From contig JADGAT010000012.1 in NCBI GenBank assembly GCA_015231885.1, positions 5,890 to 69,889 on the forward strand: a stretch of DNA of 64,000 nt, in the 5' to 3' direction. Position 1 is the first letter of the stretch, and each line of letters starts with the position of its first letter. This stretch comes from SAR324 cluster bacterium (GTDB taxonomy: Bacteria > SAR324 > NAC60-12). The position numbers and the translations under genes were made by a program. Positions 437 to 26,601 of the stretch are shown piece after piece. The notes below the pieces were generated by a model, which was given only the letters and a program-made list of their open reading frames with translations, ran no database searches and was not told the DNA's origin.

Positions 437-958
437 TTATGCTTTTTTAAGCTCCCCTTTCATATTTGACGCTACAAGTTTTCCTTCTTCAAATAAATGT
501 GCAAAATGTTCCCTGACTTTTTCGGGATTGAAGTCCAGAAACGTACCGCCTGAAGCAAAATGCTGGAGGAAAATTTTGCCAATTGCATAAGTGGACGCTC
601 CAGAGGCTAAAGGACTGGCTACCACTCCAACAACGGTTCCAAAAAATGGCAGCATCTTACTCGCGCTGACTCCTACTCGAGCAAGTCCGTTACTCCCTAA
701 TCCACCCACTAATGAGCCAATCGCTGATTTCCCCCAGTTTTTAGAAAATTCAATGCCGTATAATTTTGTCAATTGATCAAGCATGCGAAGTTGAACAGCA
801 GAGGTCCCCAATATGTCAACAATTGGGAATGGAATCAAGCCAACCCCCATGGACCATAAAACATTACTTTTGATGACCCCGTTTCCTTCTAATTCTTTGG
901 TTTTAAAATTGTCCGCAGTTTCTTCTACTGTACTTTCTTCTTCTTTTGCTTTTACCAT
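437..958 (-). CDS. Glycine-rich DUF697/EcsC-like domain protein (paralog 1 of 4 in the window)
   Basis: 173-aa ORF with an ATG start. Core NVLWSMGVGLIPFPIVDILGTSAVQLRMLDQLTKLYG...GGTFLDFNPEKV is shared with the ORFs at 1282-1773, 14912-15736 and 35115-35870. The family name is from memory and was not confirmed by HMM. Confidence 0.7.
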   Translation of the reverse strand: MVKAKEEESTVEETADNFKTKELEGNGVIKSNVLWSMGVGLIPFPIVDILGTSAVQLRMLDQLTKLYGIEFSKNWGKSAIGSLVGGLGSNGLARVGVSASKMLPFFGTVVGVVASPLASGASTYAIGKIFLQHFASGGTFLDFNPEKVREHFAHLFEEGKLVASNMKGELKKA

Positions 959-1281: not shown

Positions 1282-1773
1282 GTGGATGAAATAAAAGCCA
1301 ATCAAGTCCTGGAGTTAAATGCAGAGAAGATTATCAATAACAATGTACTATGGGCCATGGGACTGGGAATCATTCCTTTACCACTGATTAGTTTAGCGGG
1401 TACGAGTGTGGTGCAGTTAAGAATGATCTTTCAGCTTTCCGAGCTTTATGGAGTTGAATTCTCCGAAAATCGAGTAAAACTTATCATTGGGGCTTTGGCA
1501 GGTGGCCTGGGTACTGCTGTTTTGGCTCAATCCGCTATCAGCCTGCTCAAACCGATTCCATTTGTCAATTCTGTGGCGGTAATTGGTGGCATACCTCTGA
1601 TGATGGGGGCAACTACCTATGGGTTGGGTAAAGTATTCGACTTACATTTTTCATCGGGAGGGACACTCCTCGATTTTGATTTCAAAAAACTGAGAGCTTA
1701 CTTTGTGCAACAGATTGATGATGGGAAGAAAGTAGCAGCAACTTTGAAGAGAAAGTCAACTGCTTCAGGGTGA
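1282..1773 (+). CDS. Glycine-rich DUF697/EcsC-like domain protein (paralog 2), divergent from paralog 1
   Basis: 163 aa. GTG start at 1282 with an AAAAGGA SD about 8 nt upstream. Core NVLWAMGLGIIPLPLISLAGTSVVQLRMIFQLSELYG...GGTLLDFDFKKL. Confidence 0.7.
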   Translation: MDEIKANQVLELNAEKIINNNVLWAMGLGIIPLPLISLAGTSVVQLRMIFQLSELYGVEFSENRVKLIIGALAGGLGTAVLAQSAISLLKPIPFVNSVAVIGGIPLMMGATTYGLGKVFDLHFSSGGTLLDFDFKKLRAYFVQQIDDGKKVAATLKRKSTASG

Positions 1774-2957: not shown

Positions 2958-3734
2958 TTATCTTAGGGCAAAGAGCAGTTGGGTTAATTCTTGATGAAAC
3001 ATTTTCAGGAAGACTTCTTTTGAATCCTGAATAAAAAAGTGGCCTCCTTCTAACAGATGCAATTGAAAAGCAGCATAGGTGTGAATACCCCAGTCTTCGA
3101 GTTCCTCTGGAAGTGTACGATGATCTTTTAATCCCCCATAAGTGGTAATAGGACATTGGAGAGGAGGTTCCGGGGAATATTCATAATTCTCACAAAGCTG
3201 GAGATCTCTTTGCAGAGTAGGATACATCAATTCCATCATTTCGTGGTTGTTCAAGATTTCATCAGGAGTTCCCTGAAGTTGACGAAGGGTATCCAGGAAC
3301 TTCTCCGAAGGCAATTTGTGAAGAGGTGGAAAACGAGAGATCAACTGAGGTGCCCGGTGAGCAGAATTGAATAAATGTGATGGGCCAGGGCGCTGGTTTC
3401 GACGCAGATAGCGTGCCAATTCAAAGCTGACCAAAGCTCCCATACTGTGACCATAAAAGGCATAGGGACGATCCAGGTATCCTGAAAGCACTTCTCCTAA
3501 ATCATGAATGAGAAGATTGATGTCAGTATAGGTTGTTTCCTTGAAGCGATTTTCCCTGCCAGGAAGTAAAATCAGACAGACTTCGATGTCAGTCGGTAAA
3601 TGTTGAATCCATTGAGAAAACGAAGCAATTCCTCCTCCCGCGTGAGGGAAACAGAACAATCGTAATTTGGCGTGGGAAACAGGCTTGGGGATGACGATCC
3701 ACTGCTCGGGCTGTAGCATATGAGCATATTTCAT
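2958..3734 (-). CDS. Type II thioesterase (editing or release thioesterase for PKS/NRPS)
   Basis: 258 aa. FCFPHAGGG...YAFYGHSMGALVSFELA (GxSxG nucleophile elbow) is the classic TEII / GrsT-like signature. Confidence 0.85.
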   Translation of the reverse strand: MKYAHMLQPEQWIVIPKPVSHAKLRLFCFPHAGGGIASFSQWIQHLPTDIEVCLILLPGRENRFKETTYTDINLLIHDLGEVLSGYLDRPYAFYGHSMGALVSFELARYLRRNQRPGPSHLFNSAHRAPQLISRFPPLHKLPSEKFLDTLRQLQGTPDEILNNHEMMELMYPTLQRDLQLCENYEYSPEPPLQCPITTYGGLKDHRTLPEELEDWGIHTYAAFQLHLLEGGHFFIQDSKEVFLKMFHQELTQLLFALR

Positions 3735-9666: not shown

Positions 9667-11292
9667 ATGGAAATTATTAAATTACTCAGAAGATTCTCAC
9701 CGAAAATGGTGAATCATATTGTAGCCATGATTGTTTTTTCAGGTGTAGTTAATTCTGCTATCCTGGCCATTATCTGTGCGGTCGCTATTTCTCCAGAGAA
9801 AAATAGTTTTCGCTTTTTCATGCTATACCTGGCTACGCTTTCAATCTTTCTCTTCTCAAAACGATATAGTTTGATCAAATCCTCAATCCTTGCAGAAACA
9901 GCAGTGGGCCAGGTCCGTTTGAGAATCATTGATAAAATACGCCATGCCGATTTGAGATTGCTGGAGCAGATCGGGCGTTCCTCCATCCATTCACGTTTAA
10001 CAACAGACACAACCGAAATTTCGATGGGATTTAGCGGGATGATTCATTCCGCTCAAGCGATGGTGATGGTTGTGTTTGCAGTTATGTTCTTGGCTTTTAT
10101 TTCACTCCCCATATTTTTGATGACAATCACAGTTTTTGGAATTTGTGGGGTGATTTATTTCCTCAATGAAGAAAAGGCAGAAATATTGATTCGGGATTCC
10201 TCCCGGAAAGAAACTGAACTCTTCAGTCTTGTTGATCACGTCATTGATGGCTTTCAAGAACTTCGAATCAATAAAACAAAAAATGATTCTCTGTTTGATC
10301 AATATCTCCGCCCTTTGGCAGATACAACAACAAATGTGAAATTGAAATTTTTCTATCTTCTGAACAACGGACTTATTTTCTCCATCTCCTTTGTCCATAT
10401 TTTAATCATCTCAACGATTTTTATTCTGCCTCGATTTATTACAATCACCGAGATTACGATAATACAGGCGATTGCGATTATTCTCTACATTGTTGGGCCA
10501 TTTAATCATGTTTTAGGAAGTATTTCGATTTTTTCCCGAACTGCAATCGCTATTGAAAATCTTTATAAATTTGAAGAAGATTTGGAAGTTCCGGATCACA
10601 ATTATGATGCTCCTGGCAGCAGTGAACTGGCCAATATAGTTGAATTCAAACAGATAGAATTGATTGATTTTGAGTTTCATTACGCAGATCCGAATGGAAC
10701 TCCGGCTTTTGGCATAGGACCCTGTGATCTCAAAATCAAAGCCAATGAGACATTATTTATCGTTGGTGGCAATGGAAGCGGTAAATCGACTTTTCTTAAA
10801 TTGCTGACAGGCTTGTATTATCACGAAAATGGAAACCTCAAACTGGATGATATTTCAGTTAATCTTTCCAATTATCAGGACTATCGAAACCTGTTTTCGA
10901 TTGTTTTCACTGATTTTCATTTATTTGATCGGTTGTACGGATCTGAAGAAGCAGAGGAAAGTGTTGTCAATGAGTTATTGCATCAGATGGAAATCGAGCA
11001 CAAAACAAAATTTGTTGATGGTAGGTTTTCCAATATCAATTTGTCTACCGGTCAAAAAAAGCGATTGGCTTTAGTAGCGGCTATCTTGGACGAAAAACCA
11101 ATTTATGTGTTTGATGAAGTCGCAGCAGATCAAGACCCTCAATTCCGCCAATATTTCTATGAAACTATTTTGCCTGATTTGAAAAAAAAGGGAAAAACTA
11201 TCATAGCGGCTACCCACGATGACAAATACTTCCATACTGCTGACCGCATTCTGAAAATGGAATATGGGCAATTTATCCCGTATGAGCCCTGA
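9667..11292 (+). CDS. ABC transporter with fused permease and ATPase (SyrD-like cyclic-peptide exporter family)
   Basis: 541 aa. The N-terminal ~300 aa has 6 TM helices. Walker A GGNGSGKST. ABC signature LSTGQKKRLAL. Walker B VFDEVAADQD. The architecture matches the ~550-aa SyrD/cyclic-peptide-transporter family. Confidence 0.85.
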   Translation: MEIIKLLRRFSPKMVNHIVAMIVFSGVVNSAILAIICAVAISPEKNSFRFFMLYLATLSIFLFSKRYSLIKSSILAETAVGQVRLRIIDKIRHADLRLLEQIGRSSIHSRLTTDTTEISMGFSGMIHSAQAMVMVVFAVMFLAFISLPIFLMTITVFGICGVIYFLNEEKAEILIRDSSRKETELFSLVDHVIDGFQELRINKTKNDSLFDQYLRPLADTTTNVKLKFFYLLNNGLIFSISFVHILIISTIFILPRFITITEITIIQAIAIILYIVGPFNHVLGSISIFSRTAIAIENLYKFEEDLEVPDHNYDAPGSSELANIVEFKQIELIDFEFHYADPNGTPAFGIGPCDLKIKANETLFIVGGNGSGKSTFLKLLTGLYYHENGNLKLDDISVNLSNYQDYRNLFSIVFTDFHLFDRLYGSEEAEESVVNELLHQMEIEHKTKFVDGRFSNINLSTGQKKRLALVAAILDEKPIYVFDEVAADQDPQFRQYFYETILPDLKKKGKTIIAATHDDKYFHTADRILKMEYGQFIPYEP

Positions 11293-11340
11293 CTAGGAGA
11301 TTCCTGCAGTCATGAAGCGAACCAATCTCTTTTGAGGGAA

Positions 11341-12794: not shown

Positions 12795-12915
12795 CATTCT
12801 TAACATTCCGGCTAGAAATATTTCCCTGCACCAAGAGCCAATAAATCTCTTATTTATGTATGTTTTTTTAATAAAGCACATTCTCGTTTACGACAGACTT
12901 CAGAAATCTCATGTT

Positions 12916-13980
12916 TTAAAAAGTTTCTGCAGGATGGTGGGTTTGGTCTGGAGAAGATTGGACTGCCGAAGCGGCTTCGTCAGTAATCTCTGCTGAAATC
13001 CCCTCGGAACTTCCCGGTGTTTTCTGAGATGCCTCAAGCGGCATTTGTCCTGCTTGTTGTTCTCCTGGCAGAGAAAGTGCTTTTTCGGCTGGTGCTGCCG
13101 AGCCTCCCGCCGTTTTGTCAGTTTCTGTATTCAAAATTATGGGAAGTCCATCTTTCCCTCCCCCGATGACAATTATTTTTGTGTTAGGAGATTCAGCCAG
13201 CTTCAAAGTGGCTTGAATGCCCCTCCATTGCAAATATTCCGGTTTCAAACTTGGAGAAATTGTTTTTTGAAAACGCTCCCTTCCCCGGGCCTCAATCAAT
13301 TTTCGTTTGGCTTCCTGCGCTTCTCTCTGCAGTCTGAATTCGTATTCCAAGAACAATTGCTCATGTTTTAATTTACTTTCAATTGCCTCATTAATGAGAT
13401 CGGGTAACATCAGGGTACGGATTATTATATCCTCAAACAGGATAGGATGGGCGCCGTTCTTTTCAATCGCTTCAATCAGCATTTCATCCTGAATTTGTTC
13501 TCTATGTGAAGTATAAAGTTCTTCTGGACGGTACTTGCCGATGACCTCGCGCACAGAAGCAATGGTCACCGGCTGAATTGCTTTTTTCAGGTATTCGGGC
13601 CCAATGCTTTTATGGAGTTTCCCAAGTTTTTCATATATGGGTCGGTAACGGACAGAAACGGTTAAAGAGATAGTCAAGCCATTCTGGCTAAGTACTTTCA
13701 CTTCCTGTTTGACTTCCTGAAGCCTGGCATCGTAAACTGTCATATAGTCCCAGGGAAAAACCAGCTGAAGTCCTTCCCCATAAACCCGATCAGTGATTGT
13801 CCCTCCGAATAATCGCCGATACAACACGCCTCCATGCCCTGCGGGAACTGTTACCACGATACGATCGAGAAAGAACAAGAACAATAAAAAAGCAAAACTC
13901 AGAACAATAAACAAAACGATGGGAAAATTATCCTGAACACGATTCCAGGGCGTGTAGTTTACATTTGATGTCTGCGCCAT
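12916..13980 (-). CDS. SPFH/Band-7 (prohibitin/HflKC-like) membrane protein
   Basis: N-terminal TM (FPIVLFIVLSFAFLLFLFFL). SPFH core (GHGGVLYRRLFGG...QNGLTISLTVSVRYR...) followed by a coiled-coil EAQEAKRKLIEARGRE and an Ala/Gly/Ser-rich tail. Confidence 0.8.
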   Translation of the reverse strand: MAQTSNVNYTPWNRVQDNFPIVLFIVLSFAFLLFLFFLDRIVVTVPAGHGGVLYRRLFGGTITDRVYGEGLQLVFPWDYMTVYDARLQEVKQEVKVLSQNGLTISLTVSVRYRPIYEKLGKLHKSIGPEYLKKAIQPVTIASVREVIGKYRPEELYTSHREQIQDEMLIEAIEKNGAHPILFEDIIIRTLMLPDLINEAIESKLKHEQLFLEYEFRLQREAQEAKRKLIEARGRERFQKTISPSLKPEYLQWRGIQATLKLAESPNTKIIVIGGGKDGLPIILNTETDKTAGGSAAPAEKALSLPGEQQAGQMPLEASQKTPGSSEGISAEITDEAASAVQSSPDQTHHPAETF

Positions 13981-14153
13981 AGGAGTCTTAATATAGGAAT
14001 ATCGATCGGCCTCTTGGCCGGACCGGGTTTTTTAAATGAAAATGGGAGCAAGTAGACAAACAGATGAAATGATGTTATATCCCACGCATTAAATTGAAGT
14101 CTCTTTTGGGAATATTACAATTCCTGAAATAATAGGATAAACCCACAAAAAGT

Positions 14154-14891
14154 TTGGCAAAGAATAACATGATTGTTAGTTTTGTGCAAACCAAAGGAGG
14201 AACTGGAAAAAGCACCTTGTCCCTCAATTTAGCTTTTTCAAAAGTGATCCAAAAGAACTTCGAATCCGTTGCTCTGATTGAGTTTGATCCTCAGGGAACT
14301 TTGAGAGATTGGTGGTCGGAGCGGGAAGAAAATCAACGAAAATCCACCAATATTTCATTTCATCACATTTCGAGTACACAGAAAGCGGTCGTCCAGGATG
14401 GAATCAAATCGATTGCTCAGCACAATGAACTGCTCATCCTGGACACTCCTGGTGAAAGCACAGGAAAACTCCACACCAAACTGGCTTGTGCTATTTCCGA
14501 CTTGGTGGTGATTCCCACCCGAAGCTCCACCAATGAAGAAATGGCCCTTGCCAATAAACTTTTGCCGATTTTGAAAGAAATCACTAGGTTAAATAATCAT
14601 AAGAAAGGGACTTTTCAAGTCTTACCCGCTTTTGTCAATACTCGATCCAAAAAAGAGAAAATCCAAAAATATTTTGAAGAAATCCTTCCTTCCTACATTG
14701 GATGTTTTCCCAATGTTTACCCTTTACGCTCCATTTATGAGAATTTCAATCGAGAAGGCATGACCTTACTGGAGTATGCAAAAATGGTTAAAAACAATCA
14801 ACGGCTTTATCGGCAGACCCTCAAATCCATCGACGATATTGAGCAGATCGCCAGTTCGATTTTGCGGTTTCTAATAACCAGGAAGTCCTAA
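14154..14891 (+). CDS. ParA/MinD-family P-loop ATPase
   Basis: Deviant Walker A KGGTGKST near the N-terminus (MIVSFVQTKGGTGKSTLSLNLA). 245 aa. ParA-like fold motifs (LILDTPGE). Confidence 0.8.
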   Translation: MAKNNMIVSFVQTKGGTGKSTLSLNLAFSKVIQKNFESVALIEFDPQGTLRDWWSEREENQRKSTNISFHHISSTQKAVVQDGIKSIAQHNELLILDTPGESTGKLHTKLACAISDLVVIPTRSSTNEEMALANKLLPILKEITRLNNHKKGTFQVLPAFVNTRSKKEKIQKYFEEILPSYIGCFPNVYPLRSIYENFNREGMTLLEYAKMVKNNQRLYRQTLKSIDDIEQIASSILRFLITRKS

Positions 14892-14911
14892 CCTCCGTTC
14901 AACAAGATCTG

Positions 14912-15736
14912 ATGTCGTTACCAAAAAAACGTAAAAAACTGGATGTATCCTCTGATGATAATGTTTCTCCCAGCCAAAAAAATAAGCCGGTTGCCGGGAA
15001 TAGGAATTCTAAAAAACCTGCAGATGAGCCTCCGGCCTCCTCATCTTTGAAATCCTCGCAGAAGCCATCTGTTAAAAGGAAAAGTAAGAACCAAGCTTCT
15101 TCACCTAAAACAGCAGCAACCGAAACTGAACTCTCTCAAGGTTTCAAACTGGCTGACAATCTGGAGGAGTCTTCGTTTGCTTCCGATGAGGCAGCAAACG
15201 AACTCGATCTGTCAGTCCCGGTCATTTCCGAAAAGTCATTGGAAAAACCCGCTTTCCCAAAAGATCAAAACGAGCAATCTTTGAAAGCCTCCCTGATCAC
15301 TGAAAAGTACGTGATCTTGGCAGTGGGAGCAGGATTGATCCCGGCTCCTTTTCTCGATATTGTACTGGCTTCTGGCATTCAGGTTAAACTGGTTGGGAAA
15401 TTGGCAAAACTCTATGAAAAGGACTTTTCACCTGCTCGGGCAAAATACATAATCACGGCACTAGGTGGAAACTATGCGGTGGGCGCTTCTTCTCTTTGGG
15501 GGGTCGCAAGCCTTGCTAAAATATTTCCTTTTATAGGAACTATTTTTGGAACAGCAACGATGCCTGCGGCGTTAGGAGCCTTTACCTATGCAGTTGGTGG
15601 GGTATTTTCTCGTTACTTTGAATTGGGAGGGACTTTGTCCGATTTTGATTCTTCCAAAAATCGAGCCTATTTTGAAAAGCAACTCCGGGATGGACAGCTG
15701 AGAGTCAACTCTGGTATTTCTCAAACCGGGAAATGA
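14912..15736 (+). CDS. Protein with a Lys/Ser/Pro-rich disordered N-terminus and a C-terminal DUF697/EcsC-like glycine-rich domain (paralog 3)
   Basis: Begins 21 nt after the ParA-like stop. The N-terminal 130 aa is basic then acidic and low-complexity (KKRKKLDVSSDD...KRKSKNQASSPK). The C-terminal domain ILAVGAGLIPAPFLDIVLASGIQVKLVGKLAKLY...GGTLSDFDSSKNRAYF is paralogous to 437-958, 1282-1773 and 35115-35870. Confidence 0.7.
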   Translation: MSLPKKRKKLDVSSDDNVSPSQKNKPVAGNRNSKKPADEPPASSSLKSSQKPSVKRKSKNQASSPKTAATETELSQGFKLADNLEESSFASDEAANELDLSVPVISEKSLEKPAFPKDQNEQSLKASLITEKYVILAVGAGLIPAPFLDIVLASGIQVKLVGKLAKLYEKDFSPARAKYIITALGGNYAVGASSLWGVASLAKIFPFIGTIFGTATMPAALGAFTYAVGGVFSRYFELGGTLSDFDSSKNRAYFEKQLRDGQLRVNSGISQTGK

Positions 15737-15954: not shown

Positions 15955-18900
15955 ATGAATAAAAATCTCGAGCACAAGTATCTTGAAGCACTCAAAAAAT
16001 CATCAGGAAAAATCAAAGAACTACTGGCTGAAATTGACACGTTAAAGCAAAGAGATTCTGTTGCTATCATTGGAATGGGGTGCCGTTTTGCAGGAGGAGC
16101 AGACAGTCCGGAAAGATTTTGGGATTTACTGAAAGAAGGAAGAGATACGATTGTTGAAGTTCCCCCGGACCGTTGGAATATTGACGAGTATTTTGATTCG
16201 AATATAGACGCTCCTGGAAAAATGTATTCCCGATATGGAGGATTTCTGGATGAAGTGGATAAGTTCGATTGTTCCTTTTTTGGAATTTCGCCTCGAGAAG
16301 CAGAATCCCTGGACCCTCAACACCGTCTTTTGCTGGAAGTTAGCTGGGAGGCACTTGAAAATGCTGGTCAAAGTGTTGAAGCCCTGAAAGAAAGTGCCAC
16401 AGGAGTTTACATCGGGATTTTCAGTTATGAATACGGAAGGGTCCGTTTGGTTGGAGGAGAAGAGCAGAAGATTGATGCCTATTCCGTCACGGGGGTATCC
16501 CACAGCATGGCTGCAGGAAGGATTTCCTATTTATTTGGATTTCAAGGGCCGAACATCGCTATAGACACTTCCTGTTCTTCGTCTTTGACCGGTTTGCATT
16601 TGGCTGTGGCCAGCTTACAAAGCAGGGAATCCGACCTCGCTCTGGCAGGCGGGGTTAATTTTATGATCTCGCCCGAGTGCCAAATTGGATTTTCAAAGCT
16701 CAATGCACTTTCCCCAGATGGGCACTGTAAAACTTTTGATGCTGCAGCTAACGGAATTGGGAGAGGTGAAGGATGCGGGATGGTTGTATTGAAACGTCTC
16801 TCGGATGCTATTTCAGATGGAGATTCGATTTTAGCCGTTATCAAGGGTAGTGCGATCAATCAGGATGGTTCCAGCAATGGATTGACAGCCCCTAACGGTA
16901 TTGCCCAACAGAAAGTAATTACTCAGGCACTGAAAAATGCACAACTTTCACCGGAAGACGTGAGCTATATTGAAGCTCATGGAACCGGCACTCCTCTGGG
17001 AGATCCTATCGAAATTCACTCTTTGGCAAAAGTCTTCAAAAATCAGGAACTGCTTGTGGGTTCCGTAAAAACAAATCTGGGACACCTGGAAAGTGCATCA
17101 GGTATCGCTGGCCTGATCAAAGTTCTTCTGTCAATCCAGCACGAGCAAATTCCTCCTCATCTTCATTTTCAAACTCCCAATCCTCATATCAATTGGAATG
17201 AATCGGCATTCAAAATTCCCACAGAAAACACCCCCTGGCCCAAAACTGCACGACCACGCATTGCTGGTATCAGTGCTTTCGGGTTGAGTGGAACCAATGC
17301 CCATGTCTTGGTCGGAGAACCCCCTGCTAACGATGATAGCTCAGAGGCTGAGCGTGATACTGGCGCTCAGGACCGTCCAGTTCACATTTTGAATCTTTCA
17401 GCAAAAAATAACGAAGCCCTTCACGAACTGGCTCATAAATACATAAAATATTTTGAGCAATTCGATTCAGATTCCGAAAGCGTAGCTGGAAATATCTGCT
17501 TTACTGCCAATGCGGGACGATCTCATTTTAAGCACCGAATTTCTCTGATTGGAGAATCCGTTCAGAAAATCGGAGAAAAATTATCGGATTATCTAAAAGG
17601 AATTCCACCAAAAGATTTTTTTCAAAGCAACGAGACTGAAAAACCCAGACTTCAAATTGTTTTTTTGTTCACGGGGCAGGGGTCACAATATAAAGGGATG
17701 GGGCTGGAGTTGTACAAAAGCCAACCGGTCTTTAAAAAGATACTCGATCAATGTGATCAACTGTTTACACCTCATCTGAATAGGTCGATCATAGATTTGA
17801 TGTATGCAGAAGAGACTCCGGAAGACCTGCTCGAGCAGACACGATATACCCAGGCAGTCATTTTTTCTATTGAATATGCTTTGGCCCGTTTATGGGAACA
17901 TTGGGGAATCAGAGCTGCTGCAGTGATGGGGCACAGTGTAGGAGAGTATGTTGCTGCCAGCATTGCCGGTGTGTTAAGCCTTGAAGACGCAGTCAAGCTC
18001 GTGGCAGCCAGAGGGAAGCTGATGCAGGCTCTGCCTGAAGGCATCATGGCTGCTGTTTTTGTAGAGGAAAGCATTGCTTTGGATGTGATAGCAGAGTTTG
18101 AAGAAAAAGTTTCTATTGCAGCAGTCAATTCTTCTAAAAACGTGGTGCTTTCTGGAGAAGAAGAAGCCGTGCTGCAGGTTCTGAAAAGATTTGACGAAAA
18201 AGGAATTGCTTCCCGCCATCGACTACTGAAAGTTTCACATGCGTTCCATTCGCCGATGATGGACCCGGTTCTGAACGAATTTAAAACCATTGCTTCAACG
18301 ATCCATTATTCAAAACCTAGACTTCCCCTGATATCCAATCTCACTGGAGAACCAGTCCGGATTTCGACAAATTCTTCTTCGGATGAATGGCCGGAGTACT
18401 GGACTCGCCATATTCGGGAAACCGTTCGTTTTTATGACTCGATCCAGTACTTGGAACAGAAAGATTATCAGATCTTTTTAGAAATTGGAGCAAGTCCCGT
18501 ACTTTCAGGTCTTGGAAGGCAAAGTGTTTCCCAAAATCACTTACTTTGGCTCCCCTCTCTTCGGCAGGGGCAAAGTGATTGGAATCAAATTTTAAGGTCA
18601 TTGGCTCAGTTGTATGTAAATGGGGCTAAAATTGACTGGGAGAGATTTGACAAACCTTATAGCCGGAAAAAACTAGCCCTGCCGACCTATCCGTTTCAAC
18701 GAAAACGCTACTGGGTCGCTCCTCCTCATCTTCACCGAAGTGGCGAAAAAAGTAGAGAAACTCTTGAATTTTCTCCCAATACACCCCAACCGACTGGAGA
18801 GGCAAAGTCGGTTCTGGAAAAGATGATGATCCAGCAGCACGAGACCATGAAAAAGCAGTTGGAGATTATGAGCATGCAGCTCAAAACTGCCAAAGCGCAA

Positions 18901-21900
18901 ACATCGGCCACTACCCGGAAAAATGAGGAAATTTCGTCCCCCCCTGAATTTTGCCTGGATCAAAAAAAAACTGAATTTAAAAGAAGCCTCAGCCACCGGA
19001 TGTCCTCCGGTCAAAAGCGTCTGTTCATCATCACCCAGTTTTCAGGAGGAGAAAGAAGTTATCATCTCTCAGGAGCCTGGTGGGTCAAGGGGACATTAGA
19101 CCTTCCCAAACTTGAGCAGTGCATTCAGCTGCTGATTGATCGTCATGAAAGCCTGCGGACAGGTTTTGTGATTGAGGAAGAGGAATGGGTTTGTCAAATT
19201 CATGAGCGGGTGCCGTTTGAAATTACGATGAAGGAAGCAGAGCACAGCAATGCTGATGGTCATGTTTCTGATTTTATTCAGGCTTTTGATTTGAGCAATC
19301 CCCCATTGATCAGGGTTGGACTGGTCCGCTTTTCAGAAGAGCGTTATCTGATGCTTGTGGACGCTCATCATATAGTTTTTGACGGACTTTCCATGAGCCT
19401 TTTTTCCAGGGAGCTGATGACGCTCTACCAGGGCTATCCCCTTCGAGCCCTGAGAGCCCAGTACCGGGACTATGTCTCCTGGCAGGAGAGTTTTTTTCAG
19501 GGCCATGCTTTCAGGCACCAGGAAACATACTGGCTGAATCAATTTTCCGGGGAGCTGCCCGTTTTGGATTTACCGCTGGACTACTCCCGTCCCTCCCTGT
19601 CGAGCTTTGAGAGGGCCGATGTCACGATTGAACTGGAAAGCGCTGAACTGATCGCTTTCAGCCAGTCTCAGGGCGTCTCGTTGTACATGGTTTTAGTTGC
19701 TGGCTATGATCTTTTATTGTCCCGTTTAACCGGGCAGGAGGAGATCATCATTGGCAGTGTCAGCACTCATCGAGCCGCAGAAGAGTTCAATGAGATCATT
19801 GGCATGATCACCAATACCCTGGCCCTGCGGGCTTTCCCGGAATCTCAAAAAACTTTTGACAGGTTTCTAAAGGAAGTCAAAACCATTTGTCTTGAGGCCT
19901 ATGCCCACCCTGATTATCCCTTTGAGCGGCTGGTTGAGCAACTGGGATATGCCCAGGCCCCCAACCGCCATCCGATCTTTGATACGATGTTTTCCTACGA
20001 AAAAGCGGATGAGCGGGTTTTAAGATTGAAGGATTTGGAAATCACTCCTTATTTTGAAAAACAAAGTTACATGTTTGATCTGGCTTTGGATGTGATTGAA
20101 CAGGAGGATCTGTTAAGATTTAATTTTGAATACGATGCCAGCCTTTTCAGGAAAGAAAGCATTGAAAGATTCTCGGGATATTTCATCAGAATTCTGCAGG
20201 AAGTCACGAGGGACCCGAAGCAGCAGCTGGGAGAGATTGAGATGCTCTCCGGGGAAGAAAAGCGGCAGATTCTGGAAACGCTCAACGCCACGGAGCGGGA
20301 TTATCCCGGAGAGAAAACGATTGTGGATTTGTTTGAGGAACAGGTTCTTCTGAGCCCTCAGAAAACCGCCCTTATTTTTGCGGATATTCGCCTGAGTTTC
20401 CATGAATTGAATGAGCGTGCGAACAAGGTCGCAGTCAATCTGAGAGAGAAATACCGGATTCGGCCGGAAGATCGAGTGGGAATTCTCCTGGATCGTTCTG
20501 AATGGATGGTGATTGCCATGCTGGGGATTCTCAAAGCCGGTGGGGCTTATGTTCCGATAGATCCGGACTTTCCCTCAAAACGAATCGATTACATTCTCAA
20601 AGACAGTCAGTGCCGGCTGGTGTTGACAGAAGAGTCAGTCAGAAGCAGGGTCACTCTGGATAAAACCGTTGAAGTCGCGGAGGTTTACTGGATTTCCACA
20701 GGAAAGGGCAGCAATCCGTCATCGTTGAGCCAAGCTTCCCATCTGGCTTATCTGATTTATACTTCCGGCTCCACAGGCAGTCCGAAAGGAGTGATGATCG
20801 AACACCGCAATGTGATCAGTTTCGCGAGTAATCTGAAATCGGGTTTCGGCATGCAGTCCAGTGACCGGATTTATGCTCTGACTCCGCTGAGTTTTGATAT
20901 TTCAGCACTGGAATTGATATGCAGCCTTGTCAATGGAATGGAAGTGACCCTGGCTTCAAAAGAAGAGCAGTCGGATCCAGACGCTGTTGCCGGGGTTTTA
21001 GAGAAGGGGGAGATCAGTGTTTTACAAATCACTCCCTCAAGACTGAGGTGGCTGCTTGAATCCCGGGAGATCGAACTTTTAAACACCCTGAATGTGCTTC
21101 TGGTGGGAGGAGAAGCGCTGCCTCAATCACTTTCCGAAAAGCTGTGTTTGCTTTCTCATCCCAAAATTTTCAATGTTTATGGCCCGACAGAAACGACAAT
21201 CTGGTCAACAGCCCATCAGCTGCTTGACCCGGGAGTCAGCATCGGCAGGCCGCTGCTGAATGAGGAGGTCTATATATTGTCAGAAAACAATCAACCGCAA
21301 CCTTATGGTGTTGCGGGGGAATTGTGCATTGGCGGTGCCGGGGTAGGGCGGGGTTATGTCAATCGCCCGGACTTAACTCAGCAGCAATTTATCGAGAATC
21401 CTTTTCGGGAAGGAGAAAGGCTTTACCGGACTGGAGATTTGGCCTGTTGGCTGCCGGAGGGACAGATCAGGTTTTTGGGAAGAAAAGACTCTCAGGTGAA
21501 AATAAGGGGCCACCGGATTGAGCCGGGAGAGATCGAGCAGGTGCTGCGGAAGTATCCCGAAGTAAGGGAAGCTGTCGTGATTGCCAGGGAAACTGAGGGC
21601 GGGCATCACGTTCTGGCGGCATATCTGGAGGGAGATCAGGAATGGGACAATCAGGCCCTGCGTGGATATTTATCAGAGCTTCTGCCAGAATATATGATTC
21701 CCTCTTCCTTTGTCCCCATGAAGCGGCTTCCTCTCAATTCCAGCGGAAAAATAGACAAACGGGCCCTGCCTGATCCTCAGGAAGGGTCCTTGATTTCCTC
21801 GACCTACGAGGCTCCGCGCAATCGGCTTGAAAAGGAACTGGTCGAGATCTGGGAAGAGATTCTCGGACAAAGTCCGATCGGGATTCATGACCATTTTTTT

Positions 21901-24900
21901 GAGCGGGGAGGGCACAGTCTGAAAACGGTTCAGCTCCTTTCCCGCATTCATAAGCGGCTTGAGCGGCAAGTTTCTTTGAAACAGATCTTCGCCACTGCGA
22001 CCATCGCAGGATTGGCTGAAGTGATTCAAGGGACGGATCACAGGGAGTTTGAGATGATTGAAACCGTGGCGGAGGCGGAGCATTATCCTCTTTCCCATGC
22101 CCAGAGGCGCTTGTGGGTCATGCATCAGCTGGAAGAAAGCTCCACCGCCTACAATGTGACCGGGGCTTTGCTGCTGAAAGGCAGCCTGGATCAAGGGGCT
22201 CTGCTTGAAGCCCTGAATACTCTTCTTCTTCGTCATGAGTCCCTGCGCACCACCTTTCTTCCTCATCAAGGAGAGCCACGCCAGAAAATTCATCAGTCCC
22301 CTGATCTTGATTGTGAGGAAATCGACCTAAGGGGTGAAATAGATGCCCATCAGAAAGCCCGTGCGATTGTCAGGGAGGAAGGACAGCGTTCTTTCATTTT
22401 AACAGCAGGACCCCTGATCCGTGTCAAATTACTGCAACTCGATAAAGCGGCACATGTGCTCGCAGTCAATCTGCACCACATCATCTGCGACGGATGGTCG
22501 CTTGGTGTGCTGACCCGTGAATTGGGAATGCTTTATCAGGCTTTTCACCGCCGTGAGGCCAACCCTTTAAAGCCGCTTCTGATTCAATACAAAGATTATA
22601 CAGCCTGGCAGGAAAACTGGCTCAAAAGCGAGGAGGCTGAGAAACAGCGGGCATACTGGCATGGACGTTTCTCAGGAGAATTAGCGGTTTTGGAATTGCC
22701 ACTCGACCGTCCCCGTCCGCTGGCACAGACTTTTCAGGGAAAGATTCTGCGCAAAGAGTTCAATGAGGCATTGAGCGAACAAATAAGAACATTGATGCGC
22801 CGGGAAGAGATGACCCTTTTTATGGGACTGCTGGCCCTGGTCAAGGTTTTGCTGTACCGCTACAGCGGACAGGAACAGATTATCGTGGGAAGCCCTGTTG
22901 CCGGCAGAAAACATCTCGATTTGGAAGAGCAGATCGGCTGTTATATCAATATGCTCCCCCTCAGTGATAAAATAGAAGGTTCTCAATCCTTTCAATCTTT
23001 TCTGGCTCAAGTCAGGCAAACTACAGAGGAAGCCTATCAGCACCAGGATTATCCATTTGATCAGCTTGTTGATGAACTGAATCCAGAGAGGGATCTTTCC
23101 CACTCTCCTCTCTTTGACGTGATCGTCTCCCTGCAAAATCAAGATCAGCCTCCTGTTCAACTGGAAGCGCTTTCCATAGAGGAGTTTTCCTTCTCCCTGG
23201 AAGTCAGCCGGTTGGACCTGACCTTCAATTTTATTGAACGGGAAAAAACACTGCTTTGTGAGATTGAGTACAATACCAGTTTGTTCGATCAAGAGCGAAT
23301 TGAGCGTATGGGAGATCATCTGGAAACCCTGGCGCATTCTGCAGTCAACAATATCACTCAATCAGTCGATACTCTGGAAATACTGACGGAGCAGGAAAAA
23401 CAGCAGTTGCTGTTGGCGTTCAACGCCACTCAAAGCGATTATCCGAAAGACAAATCAGTGGTTGAACTGTTTGAGGAACAAGTGCTCAAAACTCCTGAAG
23501 CCACGGCACTGGTCTTTGAAGAGACCCGTTTGACTTATCGTGAATTGAATCAGCGGGCCAATCAAATTGGGGTTTATTTGCGGGAGCAGTTTCAAGTTGA
23601 AGCGGATGATGTGGTGGGTGTTTTCACCGAACACTCCGAGAGGATGATTGTCGCTGTTCTCGGGATTCTCAAGTCCGGTGCGGCTTATTTGCCCATTGAT
23701 CCGTTATACCCGGATGAGCGTCTATTCCACATACTCCAGGAAGCCGAGCCCAAAATTATCTTTGCCGACACCACGGTGGAGACGCGTCTGGCCCAGTCGG
23801 GGATTCCCCTCTGCTCTCTGGAGCTGAATCCTGAAATTGAATCGAGATCTCAGGACAACCTGCCGATTATCTGCACTCCCAGAGCGCTGGCATACATCAT
23901 ATACACGTCGGGGACAACGGGAAATCCGAAAGGCTCTTTGATTGAACACCAATCCATTGTGCGTTTGGTCAAAAACACCAATTACATTGAGATCACGCCT
24001 TCAGACCGAATTTTACAAACAGGGTCCCTCGCATTTGATGCTTCCACTCTTGAAATCTGGGGAGCCCTGCTCAATGGAGCTGAACTGCATATTGCCAGAG
24101 AAGACAGTTTGCTCAATCCCGCTGAGTTCCGCAAAATACTTGCTCAAAATCAAATCTCCATTATCTGGCTGACCGCGGGCTTGTTCAATCAATTCATTGA
24201 TACTGATCCGGAAATGTTCTCCGGTCTTAAACAGCTTTTTACTGGAGGAGAAAAACTTTCTCCCGTTCATATCACTAAGGCTCGGCAAAACCATCCTGCT
24301 TTGATGATTACCAATGGATATGGACCCACAGAAAACACAACCTTCAGTACTTGCTACCAAATAGAAAAGGAATTCGACAAGGATATTCCCATTGGCAAAC
24401 CCGTTTCCAATACACGCGCTTATATTCTGGGCAACGCCAATCAATTGCAGCCTATCGGAATAGTTGGTGAATTGTGTTTTGCTGGCGATGGTCTGGCCAG
24501 GGGTTATCTGAAAAATGAGCAGCTTAGCCGGGAAAAATTTGTTGCCAATCCGTTTGAACCCGGCGAGAGAATGTACCGCACCGGTGATTTCTGCCGCTGG
24601 GATGCTGAGGGTAATATCGAAATATTGGGACGTATAGACGATCAGGTCAAAATAAGAGGATACCGTGTTGAATTGGGAGAGATCGAACACACGCTGCAGA
24701 GCCATACCCATGTCCAGGAAGCCGTGGTCATTGTCAGGGAAGTAGAAGGGGCATCCAAAGAATTAATTGCCTACCTCGTCGGAAATCAGAAATTGAGTGT
24801 GGCTGATTTATCGCAGTTTCTCTCAAAAACTTTACCCAACTACATGATCCCTTCCTACTTCGTTCAGATGGATCAACTCCCGCTCAATCCGAGTGGTAAA

Positions 24901-26601
24901 ATTGACAAGCGGGCGTTGCCGGATCCTGATGAAGGAACACGGTCTTCTTCTGCTGTTTATGAAGCCCCGCACAATTCTTTGCAAAGCCATCTGATCCGAT
25001 TGTGGGAAGAAACACTGGGACAGAGCCCAATTGGGATTCATGATAATTTTTTTGAGAGAGGCGGTCATAGCTTGAAGGCAATTCAGCTGCTTTCTCGAAT
25101 TCACCAGCAATTGGAAATAAGCGTTGGTCTGAAAGATATTTTTATGGCCACTACTGTTGCTAAACTGGCGGAATTGGTACAAAGCAATAACCCCAGGCAA
25201 TTCAAAGCGATTCAACCAATAGCGATTGCTGAGCATTACGAACTATCATATGCTCAAAGACGATTGTGGCTTTCTCATCAATTGGAAGAAAATCCAATTG
25301 CCTACAATGTTGCTGATGCCATGCTTTTGGAAGGGGATTTAGATACAGAAGCTCTTTATAAAGCGCTTAAAACACTGGTAGAACGTCATGAATCCTTGCG
25401 GACTACCTTTCTAAATATTGCTGGAGAACCCCGACAAAAAATCCATCAAAGCCTGGATTTAAAAATGGATGAGATCGATTTGACTGAGGAAAAAGATGTG
25501 TTTCAACTGGCAGAGGAAATCGTACAGAAAGAAGGACATCGCCTGTTTGATTTAGCAGCAGGTCCCTTGGTTCGGGTGAATTTATTGATGCTAAAACCGG
25601 CCCTTCATGTGCTGGTAATCAGCCTTCATCATATCATCTGTGATGGATGGTCTATTGAAATTCTGATTCGGGAACTGGGTGTCCTTTATCAGGCTTTTCA
25701 CCGGGGAGAAAGCTGCCTTTTGACACCGCTATCTATTCAGTACAAAGACTATGCGGCCTGGCAGAAGAACTGGCTATCCAGTCCTCAAGCAGAGCAGGAA
25801 CAAAATTATTGGCACAAACAACTGTCCGGTTCCCTGCCTGTTCTGAAATTACCAACAGACCGTCCTCGTCCCTCCGTTCAGAAATTTCAGGGAAAATCCA
25901 TTTGGATTGATTTTGATCCGGAACTGACAGCGAAAATACAAAATTTGCTGCATCAACAGGAAGTGACATTATTCATGGCATTGATAAGCATCATCAAAGT
26001 TTTGTTGTATCGATATAGCGGCGAAGAAGACATTCTGATTGGTATTCCCGTTGCCGGAAGAAATCATGTTGCTTTGGAAGATCAAATAGGTTGTTATCTC
26101 AATACTCTGGTCTTGAGAGACACTGTTAAAGGAGAGGAATCCTTTGAAGTGTTGCTCTCAAAGATCAAGCAAACTACTCTGGAAGCCTTTCAACACCAGG
26201 AATATCCCTTTGACCACCTGTTGGATGAATTGAATCTTGAAAGAAATTTAGCCCACTCTCCACTCTTTGATGTCATGGTTGTTTTGCAGAATCAGGGGCA
26301 ATCCCATTTGGAGCTGGATGAATTGACAGTTAAGCCCTTTCCTTTTTCACTGGAAGTGAGCAAATTTGACATAGCATTCAATTTTATGGAAGAAGAGGAT
26401 CGGCTGCTCTGTGAAGTTATCTTCAATACAGTACTATTTGATGAGGAACGCATTCGCCGCATGGAGGAACATTTTGAAATGCTGATTCGCTCTATCACAG
26501 AGGATATCGCTCAACCCATCCACTCCCTGCAATTGTTAGCTGAACAAAAAGAGCCGAAAGTACTGGAGAGCATCGAAGTTTCAACCCATTTCAATTTTTA
26601 A
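15955..26601 (+). CDS. Hybrid PKS-NRPS megasynthase: KS-AT-(no ACP)-C-A(Gly code)-PCP-C-A(Val-like code)-PCP-C
   Basis: KS motifs DTSCSSSL, EAHGTGT, NLGHLESASG (~16057-17335). AT motifs GHSVGEY and VSHAFHS, a malonyl-type signature (~17650-18720). C1 HHIVFDG at 19363-19386. A1 motifs A3 LAYLIYTSGSTGSPKG through A10 NSSGKIDKRALP, pocket D-I-L-Q-L-G-V-I-W. PCP1 FFERGGHSLK (~21895). C2 YPLSHAQRRLW / HHIICDG (~22080-23380). A2 pocket D-A-L-W-F-G-G-T-F. PCP2 (~25050). C3 (~25230-26598, HHIICDG at 25627). Confidence 0.95.
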   Translation: MNKNLEHKYLEALKKSSGKIKELLAEIDTLKQRDSVAIIGMGCRFAGGADSPERFWDLLKEGRDTIVEVPPDRWNIDEYFDSNIDAPGKMYSRYGGFLDEVDKFDCSFFGISPREAESLDPQHRLLLEVSWEALENAGQSVEALKESATGVYIGIFSYEYGRVRLVGGEEQKIDAYSVTGVSHSMAAGRISYLFGFQGPNIAIDTSCSSSLTGLHLAVASLQSRESDLALAGGVNFMISPECQIGFSKLNALSPDGHCKTFDAAANGIGRGEGCGMVVLKRLSDAISDGDSILAVIKGSAINQDGSSNGLTAPNGIAQQKVITQALKNAQLSPEDVSYIEAHGTGTPLGDPIEIHSLAKVFKNQELLVGSVKTNLGHLESASGIAGLIKVLLSIQHEQIPPHLHFQTPNPHINWNESAFKIPTENTPWPKTARPRIAGISAFGLSGTNAHVLVGEPPANDDSSEAERDTGAQDRPVHILNLSAKNNEALHELAHKYIKYFEQFDSDSESVAGNICFTANAGRSHFKHRISLIGESVQKIGEKLSDYLKGIPPKDFFQSNETEKPRLQIVFLFTGQGSQYKGMGLELYKSQPVFKKILDQCDQLFTPHLNRSIIDLMYAEETPEDLLEQTRYTQAVIFSIEYALARLWEHWGIRAAAVMGHSVGEYVAASIAGVLSLEDAVKLVAARGKLMQALPEGIMAAVFVEESIALDVIAEFEEKVSIAAVNSSKNVVLSGEEEAVLQVLKRFDEKGIASRHRLLKVSHAFHSPMMDPVLNEFKTIASTIHYSKPRLPLISNLTGEPVRISTNSSSDEWPEYWTRHIRETVRFYDSIQYLEQKDYQIFLEIGASPVLSGLGRQSVSQNHLLWLPSLRQGQSDWNQILRSLAQLYVNGAKIDWERFDKPYSRKKLALPTYPFQRKRYWVAPPHLHRSGEKSRETLEFSPNTPQPTGEAKSVLEKMMIQQHETMKKQLEIMSMQLKTAKAQTSATTRKNEEISSPPEFCLDQKKTEFKRSLSHRMSSGQKRLFIITQFSGGERSYHLSGAWWVKGTLDLPKLEQCIQLLIDRHESLRTGFVIEEEEWVCQIHERVPFEITMKEAEHSNADGHVSDFIQAFDLSNPPLIRVGLVRFSEERYLMLVDAHHIVFDGLSMSLFSRELMTLYQGYPLRALRAQYRDYVSWQESFFQGHAFRHQETYWLNQFSGELPVLDLPLDYSRPSLSSFERADVTIELESAELIAFSQSQGVSLYMVLVAGYDLLLSRLTGQEEIIIGSVSTHRAAEEFNEIIGMITNTLALRAFPESQKTFDRFLKEVKTICLEAYAHPDYPFERLVEQLGYAQAPNRHPIFDTMFSYEKADERVLRLKDLEITPYFEKQSYMFDLALDVIEQEDLLRFNFEYDASLFRKESIERFSGYFIRILQEVTRDPKQQLGEIEMLSGEEKRQILETLNATERDYPGEKTIVDLFEEQVLLSPQKTALIFADIRLSFHELNERANKVAVNLREKYRIRPEDRVGILLDRSEWMVIAMLGILKAGGAYVPIDPDFPSKRIDYILKDSQCRLVLTEESVRSRVTLDKTVEVAEVYWISTGKGSNPSSLSQASHLAYLIYTSGSTGSPKGVMIEHRNVISFASNLKSGFGMQSSDRIYALTPLSFDISALELICSLVNGMEVTLASKEEQSDPDAVAGVLEKGEISVLQITPSRLRWLLESREIELLNTLNVLLVGGEALPQSLSEKLCLLSHPKIFNVYGPTETTIWSTAHQLLDPGVSIGRPLLNEEVYILSENNQPQPYGVAGELCIGGAGVGRGYVNRPDLTQQQFIENPFREGERLYRTGDLACWLPEGQIRFLGRKDSQVKIRGHRIEPGEIEQVLRKYPEVREAVVIARETEGGHHVLAAYLEGDQEWDNQALRGYLSELLPEYMIPSSFVPMKRLPLNSSGKIDKRALPDPQEGSLISSTYEAPRNRLEKELVEIWEEILGQSPIGIHDHFFERGGHSLKTVQLLSRIHKRLERQVSLKQIFATATIAGLAEVIQGTDHREFEMIETVAEAEHYPLSHAQRRLWVMHQLEESSTAYNVTGALLLKGSLDQGALLEALNTLLLRHESLRTTFLPHQGEPRQKIHQSPDLDCEEIDLRGEIDAHQKARAIVREEGQRSFILTAGPLIRVKLLQLDKAAHVLAVNLHHIICDGWSLGVLTRELGMLYQAFHRREANPLKPLLIQYKDYTAWQENWLKSEEAEKQRAYWHGRFSGELAVLELPLDRPRPLAQTFQGKILRKEFNEALSEQIRTLMRREEMTLFMGLLALVKVLLYRYSGQEQIIVGSPVAGRKHLDLEEQIGCYINMLPLSDKIEGSQSFQSFLAQVRQTTEEAYQHQDYPFDQLVDELNPERDLSHSPLFDVIVSLQNQDQPPVQLEALSIEEFSFSLEVSRLDLTFNFIEREKTLLCEIEYNTSLFDQERIERMGDHLETLAHSAVNNITQSVDTLEILTEQEKQQLLLAFNATQSDYPKDKSVVELFEEQVLKTPEATALVFEETRLTYRELNQRANQIGVYLREQFQVEADDVVGVFTEHSERMIVAVLGILKSGAAYLPIDPLYPDERLFHILQEAEPKIIFADTTVETRLAQSGIPLCSLELNPEIESRSQDNLPIICTPRALAYIIYTSGTTGNPKGSLIEHQSIVRLVKNTNYIEITPSDRILQTGSLAFDASTLEIWGALLNGAELHIAREDSLLNPAEFRKILAQNQISIIWLTAGLFNQFIDTDPEMFSGLKQLFTGGEKLSPVHITKARQNHPALMITNGYGPTENTTFSTCYQIEKEFDKDIPIGKPVSNTRAYILGNANQLQPIGIVGELCFAGDGLARGYLKNEQLSREKFVANPFEPGERMYRTGDFCRWDAEGNIEILGRIDDQVKIRGYRVELGEIEHTLQSHTHVQEAVVIVREVEGASKELIAYLVGNQKLSVADLSQFLSKTLPNYMIPSYFVQMDQLPLNPSGKIDKRALPDPDEGTRSSSAVYEAPHNSLQSHLIRLWEETLGQSPIGIHDNFFERGGHSLKAIQLLSRIHQQLEISVGLKDIFMATTVAKLAELVQSNNPRQFKAIQPIAIAEHYELSYAQRRLWLSHQLEENPIAYNVADAMLLEGDLDTEALYKALKTLVERHESLRTTFLNIAGEPRQKIHQSLDLKMDEIDLTEEKDVFQLAEEIVQKEGHRLFDLAAGPLVRVNLLMLKPALHVLVISLHHIICDGWSIEILIRELGVLYQAFHRGESCLLTPLSIQYKDYAAWQKNWLSSPQAEQEQNYWHKQLSGSLPVLKLPTDRPRPSVQKFQGKSIWIDFDPELTAKIQNLLHQQEVTLFMALISIIKVLLYRYSGEEDILIGIPVAGRNHVALEDQIGCYLNTLVLRDTVKGEESFEVLLSKIKQTTLEAFQHQEYPFDHLLDELNLERNLAHSPLFDVMVVLQNQGQSHLELDELTVKPFPFSLEVSKFDIAFNFMEEEDRLLCEVIFNTVLFDEERIRRMEEHFEMLIRSITEDIAQPIHSLQLLAEQKEPKVLESIEVSTHFNF

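Follow-up and report, generated by a model that had tools for sequence, protein, structure and literature searches.

The ParA-DUF697 gene pair

We analyzed a 64,000-nucleotide stretch of DNA from a SAR324 cluster bacterium (GenBank assembly GCA_015231885.1, contig JADGAT010000012.1, positions 5,890 to 69,889 of the forward strand), referred to here as the window. Our subject is a gene pair at window positions 14154 to 15736: parA, encoding a ParA/MinD-family ATPase, and immediately 3' of it a gene encoding a DUF697 protein, referred to here as the partner. The original prediction, made from the sequence alone, was that the pair could be a positioning or scaffolding module for a membrane complex and that the partner has a histone-like tail that may bind the nucleoid or a surface. 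Loci from other genomes are identified by number (L001 and so on), and coordinates without a locus number are those of the window.

The parA open reading frame (ORF; 14154-14891, + strand) encodes the predicted 245 amino acids (aa) if it is read from a TTG codon at 14154. However, the real start is probably the ATG at 14169, which makes the gene 14169..14891 and the protein 240 aa. We favor this start because homologs at 55-88% identity all open with MI[IV]SF and because an identical database protein (P0001 at NCBI, annotated as a ParA family protein, from a SAR324 cluster metagenome-assembled genome [MAG]) is also 240 aa. Two overlapping sigma-70-like promoter matches, identified by consensus only, lie upstream at 14094..14133 (+).

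The window ParA has a deviant Walker A motif, KGGTGKST, that includes the signature lysine (aa 9-16, 14193..14216, +). The first seven positions of this motif (K9, G10, G11, T12, G13, K14, and S15) did not vary among 76 homologs. T16 was invariant in an 18-sequence alignment and nearly so among the 76. The protein passed the Pfam cut-offs for AAA_31 (38.3 bits), CbiA (37.0 bits), MipZ, and VirC1. Its AlphaFold2 model had a predicted local distance difference test score (pLDDT) of 91.3, and the best Protein Data Bank (PDB) matches found by Foldseek were ParF (4dzz; E-value, 2e-10; TM-score, 0.82) and TP228 ParA (5u1g). MipZ, Soj, and MinD were also among the top PDB matches, and BcsQ was among the structural matches. 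[quoted passage not shown] Its C terminus is a single long helix within the fold (aa 211-239), which is amphipathic but not conserved in sequence.

The partner gene (14912-15736, +) encodes 274 aa, and 20 nt separate it from parA. Its product has a sole Pfam match, DUF697 (PF05128), with 30.1 bits against a cut-off of 27.7 (aa 127-240). The same scan found no ParB, helix-turn-helix (HTH), ribbon-helix-helix (RHH), or CheW domain in it. Both ORFs are present, their Pfam matches exceed the cut-offs, and they are 20 nt apart, and so the gene pair is real. By tblastn and Pfam, the partner gene is the third of four DUF697 genes in the window, consistent with its earlier designation as paralog 3. 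The other three score 38-46 bits.

The partner has a conserved tag, a flexible linker, and a C-terminal DUF697 domain

The partner begins with a basic tag, MSLPKKRKKL (aa 1-10, 14912..14941), which is invariant in three close orthologs. This is followed by a disordered K/S/P-rich basic linker (aa 11-68, 14942..15115), a second motif (motif 2, ..SQGFKLADNLEE..) that is conserved and predicted to be helical (aa 69-89, 15116..15178), an acidic disordered linker (aa 90-116, 15179..15259), and the DUF697 domain with its five helices (aa 117-274, 15260..15736), all on the + strand. Residues 1 to 68 include 17 K/R, 5 D/E, and 24 S/P/T, and residues 69 to 116 include 3 K/R and 11 D/E. AlphaFold2 predicted no regular structure for residues 1 to 68 (pLDDT of ~50 in the basic linker) or 90 to 116, a helix at 69 to 89, and a confident five-helix DUF697 domain at 117 to 272 (pLDDT mostly >90). 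Therefore, the N-terminal half is basic and K/S/P-rich and then acidic, with predicted disorder, as originally described.

Most of this tail is not conserved. The K/S/P-rich stretch is hypervariable in both sequence and length, with many indels, and only residues 1 to 10 and the short helix at 69 to 89 are conserved. In two related loci, L020 and L076, the linker is not even basic, although both retain the tag and ParA. A conserved tag and a hypervariable linker fit the arrangement described for partners of ParA/MinD ATPases, in which an ATPase-docking tag is joined to a flexible linker. These partners engage and stimulate the ATPase through a positively charged disordered N terminus, and the remainder of the protein binds cargo (PMC10241942, PMC11407121). 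We infer that residues 1 to 10 of the window partner are a ParA-docking or ATPase-stimulating peptide.

The DUF697 domain contains a hydrophobic, proline-kinked hairpin (aa 134-152), with a maximum Kyte-Doolittle score over 19 residues of 2.2 at aa 143. This suggests that the hairpin is re-entrant in the membrane, leaving both ends in the cytoplasm. Such a topology would suit both a ParA tag and the anti-sigma domain that is fused to another DUF697 protein of the window (see below). A fold search of the DUF697 model against the PDB found nothing significant (best E-value, 0.4).

Partners of related ParA proteins share the tag but differ in their C-terminal domains

We used a ParA family alignment to search one genome per species and retained the 80 best loci. 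In these and other related loci, every complete and readable gene downstream of parA encodes a partner with a related basic N terminus. The tag consensus is M-x-L-P-K-K-R-K-K-L, and it is degenerate in Desulfobacteraceae. A strict version of the tag was found in 37 of 79 distinct partners, and an AFDLVE-like motif 2 was found in 64. The C termini of the partners fall into four classes. In the window and in L001, L007, and L020 (all SAR324), L076 (Latescibacterota), and L080 (labeled Gemmatimonadaceae), it is a DUF697 domain (Pfam, 35 bits). In six loci (L075, L077, and L079 from SAR324 and L081-L083), it is a CheW domain, making these partners ParP-like (Pfam E-value, 1e-41). Two loci (L078 and L086) have RHH-like partners, although the match is weak. 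In ~65 loci, the partner ends with a short conserved motif, hDFThPYhWxhPhhG, and a basic helix, and it has no Pfam match (the PxxW class). The strict tag was present in 6/6 DUF697 and 31/65 PxxW partners, and motif 2 in 6/6 DUF697, 6/6 CheW, and 52/65 PxxW partners. The same tag opens the DUF697, PxxW, and RHH-like partners found beside this ParA clade, and the CheW partners open with a related sequence, MGLPSKK.

The arrangement around the pair is also shared. L001 is in another SAR324 genome and encodes a ParA that is 73% identical to that of the window; its gene order is Band_7 (- strand), ParA, DUF697 protein, and polyketide synthase (PKS). ParA homologs with ~60% identity, from Leptospiraceae and metagenomes, are followed by a gene for a ~147-aa protein without a Pfam match. 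These small partners start with MA[VI]PKKRKK[LI], and their mid-motif is RAFEVVEKIE, versus GFKLADNLEE in the window. Linkers of the PxxW class have a mean K+R fraction of 0.19, and those of the CheW class are very K-rich. In a neighbor-joining (NJ) tree, the ParA proteins group by partner class, and those linked to DUF697 form one clade that spans three phylum labels. The DUF697 domains that carry the PKKRKK-type tag likewise form one clade. The ParA-DUF697 adjacency is conserved in SAR324, Latescibacterota, and a Gemmatimonadaceae-labeled MAG, and this is not a canonical parAB locus.

The other partner classes have features of their own. The PxxW class is the most common in the ParA clade, with partners of 125-155 aa in Leptospiraceae, Desulfobacterota, and Bacteriovoracaceae-labeled MAGs. 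Examples that combine the tag, the hDFThPYhWxhPhhG motif, and a basic amphipathic helix are found in L002 (6713-7153), L005 (6717-7160), and ~65 of the loci from L008 to L085. The CheW partners have 300-360 aa, with the N terminus MGLPSKKQLHKHKRGTRKALDTLE, a long K/E-rich linker, and the C-terminal CheW domain. This sister clade resembles a ParC/ParP-type system for chemotaxis arrays in SAR324.

DUF697 proteins with different tags pair with other ParA/MinD subfamilies

We also approached the pair from the DUF697 side. A word-indexed search with the full-length partner returned only three proteins, and we replaced it with a domain alignment and an exhaustive profile search, which found 2648 DUF697 proteins. 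N termini were classified among the 268 closest DUF697 relatives that we collected. Eight had the PKKRKK-type tag, 23 had a different basic motif (K-x-K-R-x-R-R-R-L-Y-E), 2 began with MARKKTPDV, and 5 had an HxxxCxxC anti-sigma-like domain.

The R.RRRLYE-tagged DUF697 gene is directly 3' of a gene for a distinct ATPase subfamily (314-343 aa; Walker A, RGGIGKTT) in all six loci with upstream sequence (L087, L105, L121, L159, L172/173, and L174). These ATPases have an N-terminal extension of ~70 aa, and an arginine replaces the signature lysine in RGGIGKTT. They are encoded at 3992-5023 in L087, 12083-13027 (-) in L105, 4935-5912 in L121, 5023-5988 in L172, and 545-1516 in L174. In L088-90, the MARKKTPDV-tagged DUF697 gene is 3' of a gene for a Soj-like ParA. 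Therefore, two further ParA/MinD subfamilies pair with DUF697 proteins that have different basic tags. Untagged DUF697 genes had no adjacent ATPase gene. We did not count L100 as a pair because its ATPase match is not adjacent to the DUF697 gene.

Two other features recur at these loci. A small ORF of ~57 aa with two predicted transmembrane (TM) helices (..GFWGYLF..) is beside DUF697 genes on unrelated contigs, at 5801-5974 in L088 and upstream of the DUF697 gene in L143 and L147. In L087 and L174, a cluster of the ATPase, two DUF697 genes, a thioesterase, and a phosphopantetheinyl transferase (PPTase) is flanked by genes for sensor guanylate/adenylate cyclases (HAMP or dCache plus Guanylate_cyc) and by a secretin gene.

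DUF697 genes accompany biosynthetic gene clusters

To survey gene context, we seeded on the DUF697 domain alone, which gave 42 metagenome loci of at least 5 kb. As controls, we used 60 ParA-seeded loci of the PxxW class. Band_7 genes were found in 26/42 DUF697-seeded loci, cyclic-peptide ATP-binding cassette (ABC) exporters in 15/42, thioesterases in 10/42, and PPTases in 12/42, and none of the four was found in any of the 60 controls. PKS or nonribosomal peptide synthetase (NRPS) genes were found in 13/42, compared with 9/60 controls, the control figure coming from a loose detector.

Where an ATPase and a tagged DUF697 protein are encoded together, the locus also carries a type II thioesterase gene and a further DUF697 gene that lacks a tag. 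Often there is also a gene for a PPTase, Band_7, a cyclic-peptide ABC exporter, or an outer-membrane-type DUF3078 protein. Tagged and untagged DUF697 genes occur together in L076, L080, L087, L088, L105, and L174. The adjacent megasynthases vary, with GNAT-KS-AT-MT-KR-ACP in L108 versus NRPS in L122 and L156. These differing architectures rule out a single shared product, making the module a generic accessory of such clusters. In the searchable open-access literature, we found no prior account of a ParA+DUF697 pair, a DUF697-SPFH-ABC module, SPFH with an NRPS, or a ParA-like protein with a megasynthase.

The window itself has this accessory set, spread over 437-15736 and followed by a PKS-NRPS gene, and its GC content is even throughout. 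Two tail-less DUF697 paralogs were found by tblastn and Pfam, paralog 1 at 437..958 (-) and paralog 2 at 1282..1773 (+). A type II thioesterase is encoded at 2958..3734 (-; Pfam Thioesterase E-value, 3e-40). It is 33% identical to one beside the ParA-DUF697 pair of L076, and thioesterase genes are also present in L087, L088, L105, and L174. At 9667..11292 (+) is a gene for a cyclic-peptide-export ABC transporter (TIGR01194, 338.7 against a cut-off of 286.2), which has an ortholog in the L088 cluster. An SPFH/Band_7 membrane scaffold gene (12916..13980, -; Pfam Band_7 E-value, 7e-24) is divergent from parA. Its position is the same in L001 and L007, and Band_7 adjoins the ATPase gene in L088-90.

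On the other side of the pair, a gene from the ORF list that encodes a 3548-aa PKS-NRPS megasynthase (15955..26601, +) starts 218 nt 3' of the partner gene. There is no terminator-like site on the + strand between the two. The DUF697 and PKS genes of L001 overlap by 8 nt, and in L007 a KS domain follows directly. The fourth DUF697 gene in the window, paralog 4 (35115..35870, +; tblastn and Pfam), encodes an N-terminal HxxxCxxC domain resembling zinc-binding anti-sigma (ZAS) domains. It adjoins an extracytoplasmic function (ECF) sigma factor gene at 34096-34893 (-) and is 19 nt upstream of another megasynthase gene at 35889. The anti-sigma-like::DUF697 fusion recurs in L172, P0132, P0309, P0346, and P0377. 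In L172, the gene order is sigma, anti-sigma::DUF697, ATPase, tagged DUF697, and ABC.

Some other window genes are less easily placed. ORF392 (1770-2948) was rejected as a conserved member of the set, because it has no similarity to its positional counterpart in L076, a DUF3078 protein. A 954-aa protein encoded at 5771-8635 (+) is an unusual fusion of a TLC-type NTP/NDP exchange transporter region and many HEAT repeats. Between the ABC exporter gene and ORF314 is an isolated 128-aa ORF (11341-11727, -) with the end of an adenylation domain and a carrier domain (PP-binding E-value, 1.6e-11), which resembles a relic of an NRPS or a free-standing carrier protein. ORF314 (11937-12881, -), beside the Band_7 gene, is cysteine rich and has no Pfam match, and longer homologs are in the same place in two SAR324 genomes (L001, 2154-4661; L007, 1414-2907).

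A possible positioning module for a membrane assembly

We propose, with a probability of roughly 0.6, that the window pair is a ParA-adaptor positioning module and that its adaptor or cargo is a DUF697 module in the membrane, accessory to gene clusters for secondary metabolites. This proposal comes from the architecture of the partner, in which tag, linker, and cargo domain match those of known ParA/MinD partners, and from the position of DUF697, which is where partners in the sister clade have CheW. The small ParF-like ParA would assemble as ATP-sandwich dimers on a matrix that is probably the nucleoid, and the protein encoded just 3' of it would be its adaptor. The tag MSLPKKRKKL and the helix at aa 69-89 would dock on ParA and stimulate its ATPase cycle. 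The flexible linker of ~100 residues would bridge the distance to the membrane, where the C-terminal DUF697 domain would anchor the adaptor in a membrane assembly or make it a component of one. Untagged DUF697 paralogs, the SPFH/Band_7 scaffold, and the cyclic-peptide ABC exporter, whose genes are found with PKS/NRPS clusters, would probably belong to this assembly as well. ParA would distribute the DUF697 platform along the cell by spacing or partitioning it. The original interpretation is partly supported. What the data support best is ParA-type positioning or scaffolding of a membrane complex, and the tag is shared with the CheW-bearing, ParP-like partners of sister ParA proteins, but the histone-like tail does not hold (see below).

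Several observations count against this proposal. A ParA-type ATPase gene was present in only 3/42 DUF697-seeded loci (60/60 controls by construction), and in only 2 of the 3 was it adjacent to a tagged DUF697 gene. Thus, ParA is an optional addition to the DUF697 module. The SAR324 locus L020 has the ParA-DUF697 pair but no SPFH, ABC, or PKS gene within 4 kb. Two DUF697 proteins on short contigs (L143 and L147) have basic MPAPKKPR-type N termini, but there is no ATPase gene in the 400-760 nt available upstream, which instead contain a small TM ORF. The ParA C terminus has no obvious MinD-type membrane-targeting motif, and its last 47 residues have no net basic charge (7.4 K/R versus 7.2 D/E). 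Membrane insertion of DUF697 is predicted solely from hydropathy and the AlphaFold2 model. Finally, the evidence is computational and comparative throughout, the surveys used home-made seed profiles and only the 80 best loci, which biases them toward close relatives, and the NJ trees have no support values.

The relationship could also run in the opposite direction, with the DUF697 side as anchor rather than cargo. The DUF697 protein would then serve as a landmark in the membrane, recruiting or sequestering ParA in the way that HubP acts on ParC and PopZ/TipN on ParA. The task of ParA would lie elsewhere, for example in the regulation of division, of DNA, or of another complex, and the DUF697 assembly would not be positioned. 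The linkage of tag and ATPase marks interaction partners but gives no direction, and because most DUF697 proteins are untagged with no ATPase nearby, DUF697 assemblies appear to have no need of positioning. However, in this ParA clade the homologous tag is on proteins that integrate into cargo (CheW as in ParP and RHH as in ParG-type centromere binders), and no further gene for a possible cargo is conserved next to the pair. We consider this reversal of roles unlikely, though it is the strongest of the alternatives.

The idea that the basic-then-acidic tail is a histone-like module also deserves comment. It would bind the nucleoid or a surface and tether a membrane protein to DNA, with ParA as a mere neighbor or regulator. 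The 17 K/R in the first 68 residues, the S/T-P-K-rich stretches, and the K-rich linkers in many partner classes are what such a module might look like. However, a DNA-binding role for the basic stretch is hard to reconcile with its variable length and sequence among close orthologs, with conservation confined to the tag and the helix at 69-89, and with its loss of basic character in L020 and L076, which retain the tag and ParA. This part of the original prediction is therefore improbable.

A third explanation is that the pair partitions the DNA of a mobile island or plasmid bearing the biosynthetic clusters, with the DUF697 protein in place of ParB. Its appeal is that the nearest solved relatives of the window ParA are plasmid partition ATPases (ParF and TP228 ParA) and that the outgroup ParA proteins, L078 and L086, have RHH-like partners. 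However, Pfam finds only DUF697 in the partner and no DNA-binding domain, and the window ParA scores 92 bits against NCBIfam NF041546 (ParA_partition), far below the cut-off of 180. Also, the pair is in chromosomal-looking contexts, on contigs of up to 639 kb, and the GC content of the window is even. We regard DNA partition as very improbable. The last alternative is a chance placement of an orphan ParA beside a membrane protein. Nothing speaks for it beyond the fact that small intergenic gaps are common in bacteria, and it can be dismissed almost entirely, because the pair is conserved in six further loci under three phylum labels, both genes co-cluster, and the same pairing is met with two other ATPase subfamilies.

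The positioning proposal can be extended, but only speculatively. ParA/MinD ATPases might space or partition a DUF697-SPFH-ABC-exporter platform that serves PKS/NRPS lines, as "metabolite factories" or as stations for self-protection and export. This arrangement might have arisen at least three times, each with a different ATPase subfamily and a differently tagged DUF697 protein, and the zinc-finger anti-sigma::DUF697 fusion might couple the platform to ECF-sigma control. We think that this full scheme is doubtful. If positioning is correct, then the DUF697 platform would be a new class of cargo for ParA/MinD systems, and DUF697, a widespread domain of unknown function, would gain a concrete and testable role. 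The three natural pairs of docking tag and ATPase would be useful for studies of specificity or for synthetic positioning systems. The data also suggest that diverse PKS/NRPS clusters in uncultured phyla have a conserved accessory module next to them (DUF697, SPFH, cyclic-peptide ABC exporter, type II thioesterase, and PPTase). Such a module bears on the membrane organization of megasynthases, export, and self-protection.

Comparison with known systems

Two categories of known system can be set aside. The pair is not a canonical ParABS system, because DUF697 is the only domain found in the partner and the ParA_partition score is below the cut-off. It also does not correspond to a known anti-phage defense, because PADLOC had no match for ParA, the partner, Band_7, or paralog 1.

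A link between NTPases and DUF697 had been invoked in the original prediction, and it is borne out by E. coli, in which ycjX (Walker A, GLSRSGKT; DUF463) overlaps the downstream gene ycjF, encoding a DUF697 inner membrane protein, by 4 nt. YcjX has been termed a DO-GTPase (PMC11237479). Almost all of the species examined have the two genes side by side, and the pair is linked to membrane-stress (Psp) loci (PMC3041696). As in the window, a P-loop NTPase gene is immediately upstream of a gene for a DUF697 membrane protein. However, the NTPase is DUF463 rather than ParA/MinD, so that the pairing in the window involves a different NTPase class, as had been suggested. YcjF also differs in having an additional TM region at its N terminus and in lacking a basic tag, and it belongs to a subfamily too distant for the window subfamily's profile to detect it. 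BcsQ (cellulose synthase) and PldP-Tat of Corynebacterium (Tat, twin-arginine translocation) are further examples of ParA/MinD ATPases implicated in organizing membrane-embedded secretion or biosynthesis machines (PldP, preprint 10.1101/2025.07.02.662783). Unlike the window ParA, they have unrelated partners (BcsR/BcsE and Tat, respectively) and no DUF697 protein.

ParF-ParG and TP228 ParA-ParB, of type Ib plasmid partition, resemble the window pair in having a small ParA without an N-terminal HTH and a partner with a flexible basic N-terminal tail. The structure of TP228 ParA was solved with the N-terminal peptide of its partner. However, the window partner has no RHH DNA-binding domain, and the sequence identity is only ~19%. 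No centromere repeats turned up at the locus, where no search was aimed at them. In McdA-McdB of carboxysomes and other ParA/MinD systems with protein cargo, a charged disordered adaptor N terminus links the ATPase to a cargo that is not DNA (PMC10241942, PMC11407121), as we propose here. The window partner has no sequence relation to McdB, and its cargo would be membrane associated rather than a cytoplasmic organelle.

The ParC-ParP system of Vibrio, with its counterpart PpfA-TlpT in Rhodobacter, is another point of comparison. ParP has an N-terminal ParC interaction domain, a long linker, and a CheW-like domain for array integration (PMC5706961). The window partner ends in DUF697 without CheW, there are no chemotaxis genes nearby, and we compared ParC and ParP by description. 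Both systems have an ATPase-adjacent partner with an N-terminal interaction region, a flexible linker, and a C-terminal domain that joins membrane-associated cargo (PMC5706961), predicted as such in the window. Furthermore, sister ParA proteins at 46-52% identity have CheW-ended partners that open with MGLPSKK..RKALDTLE.

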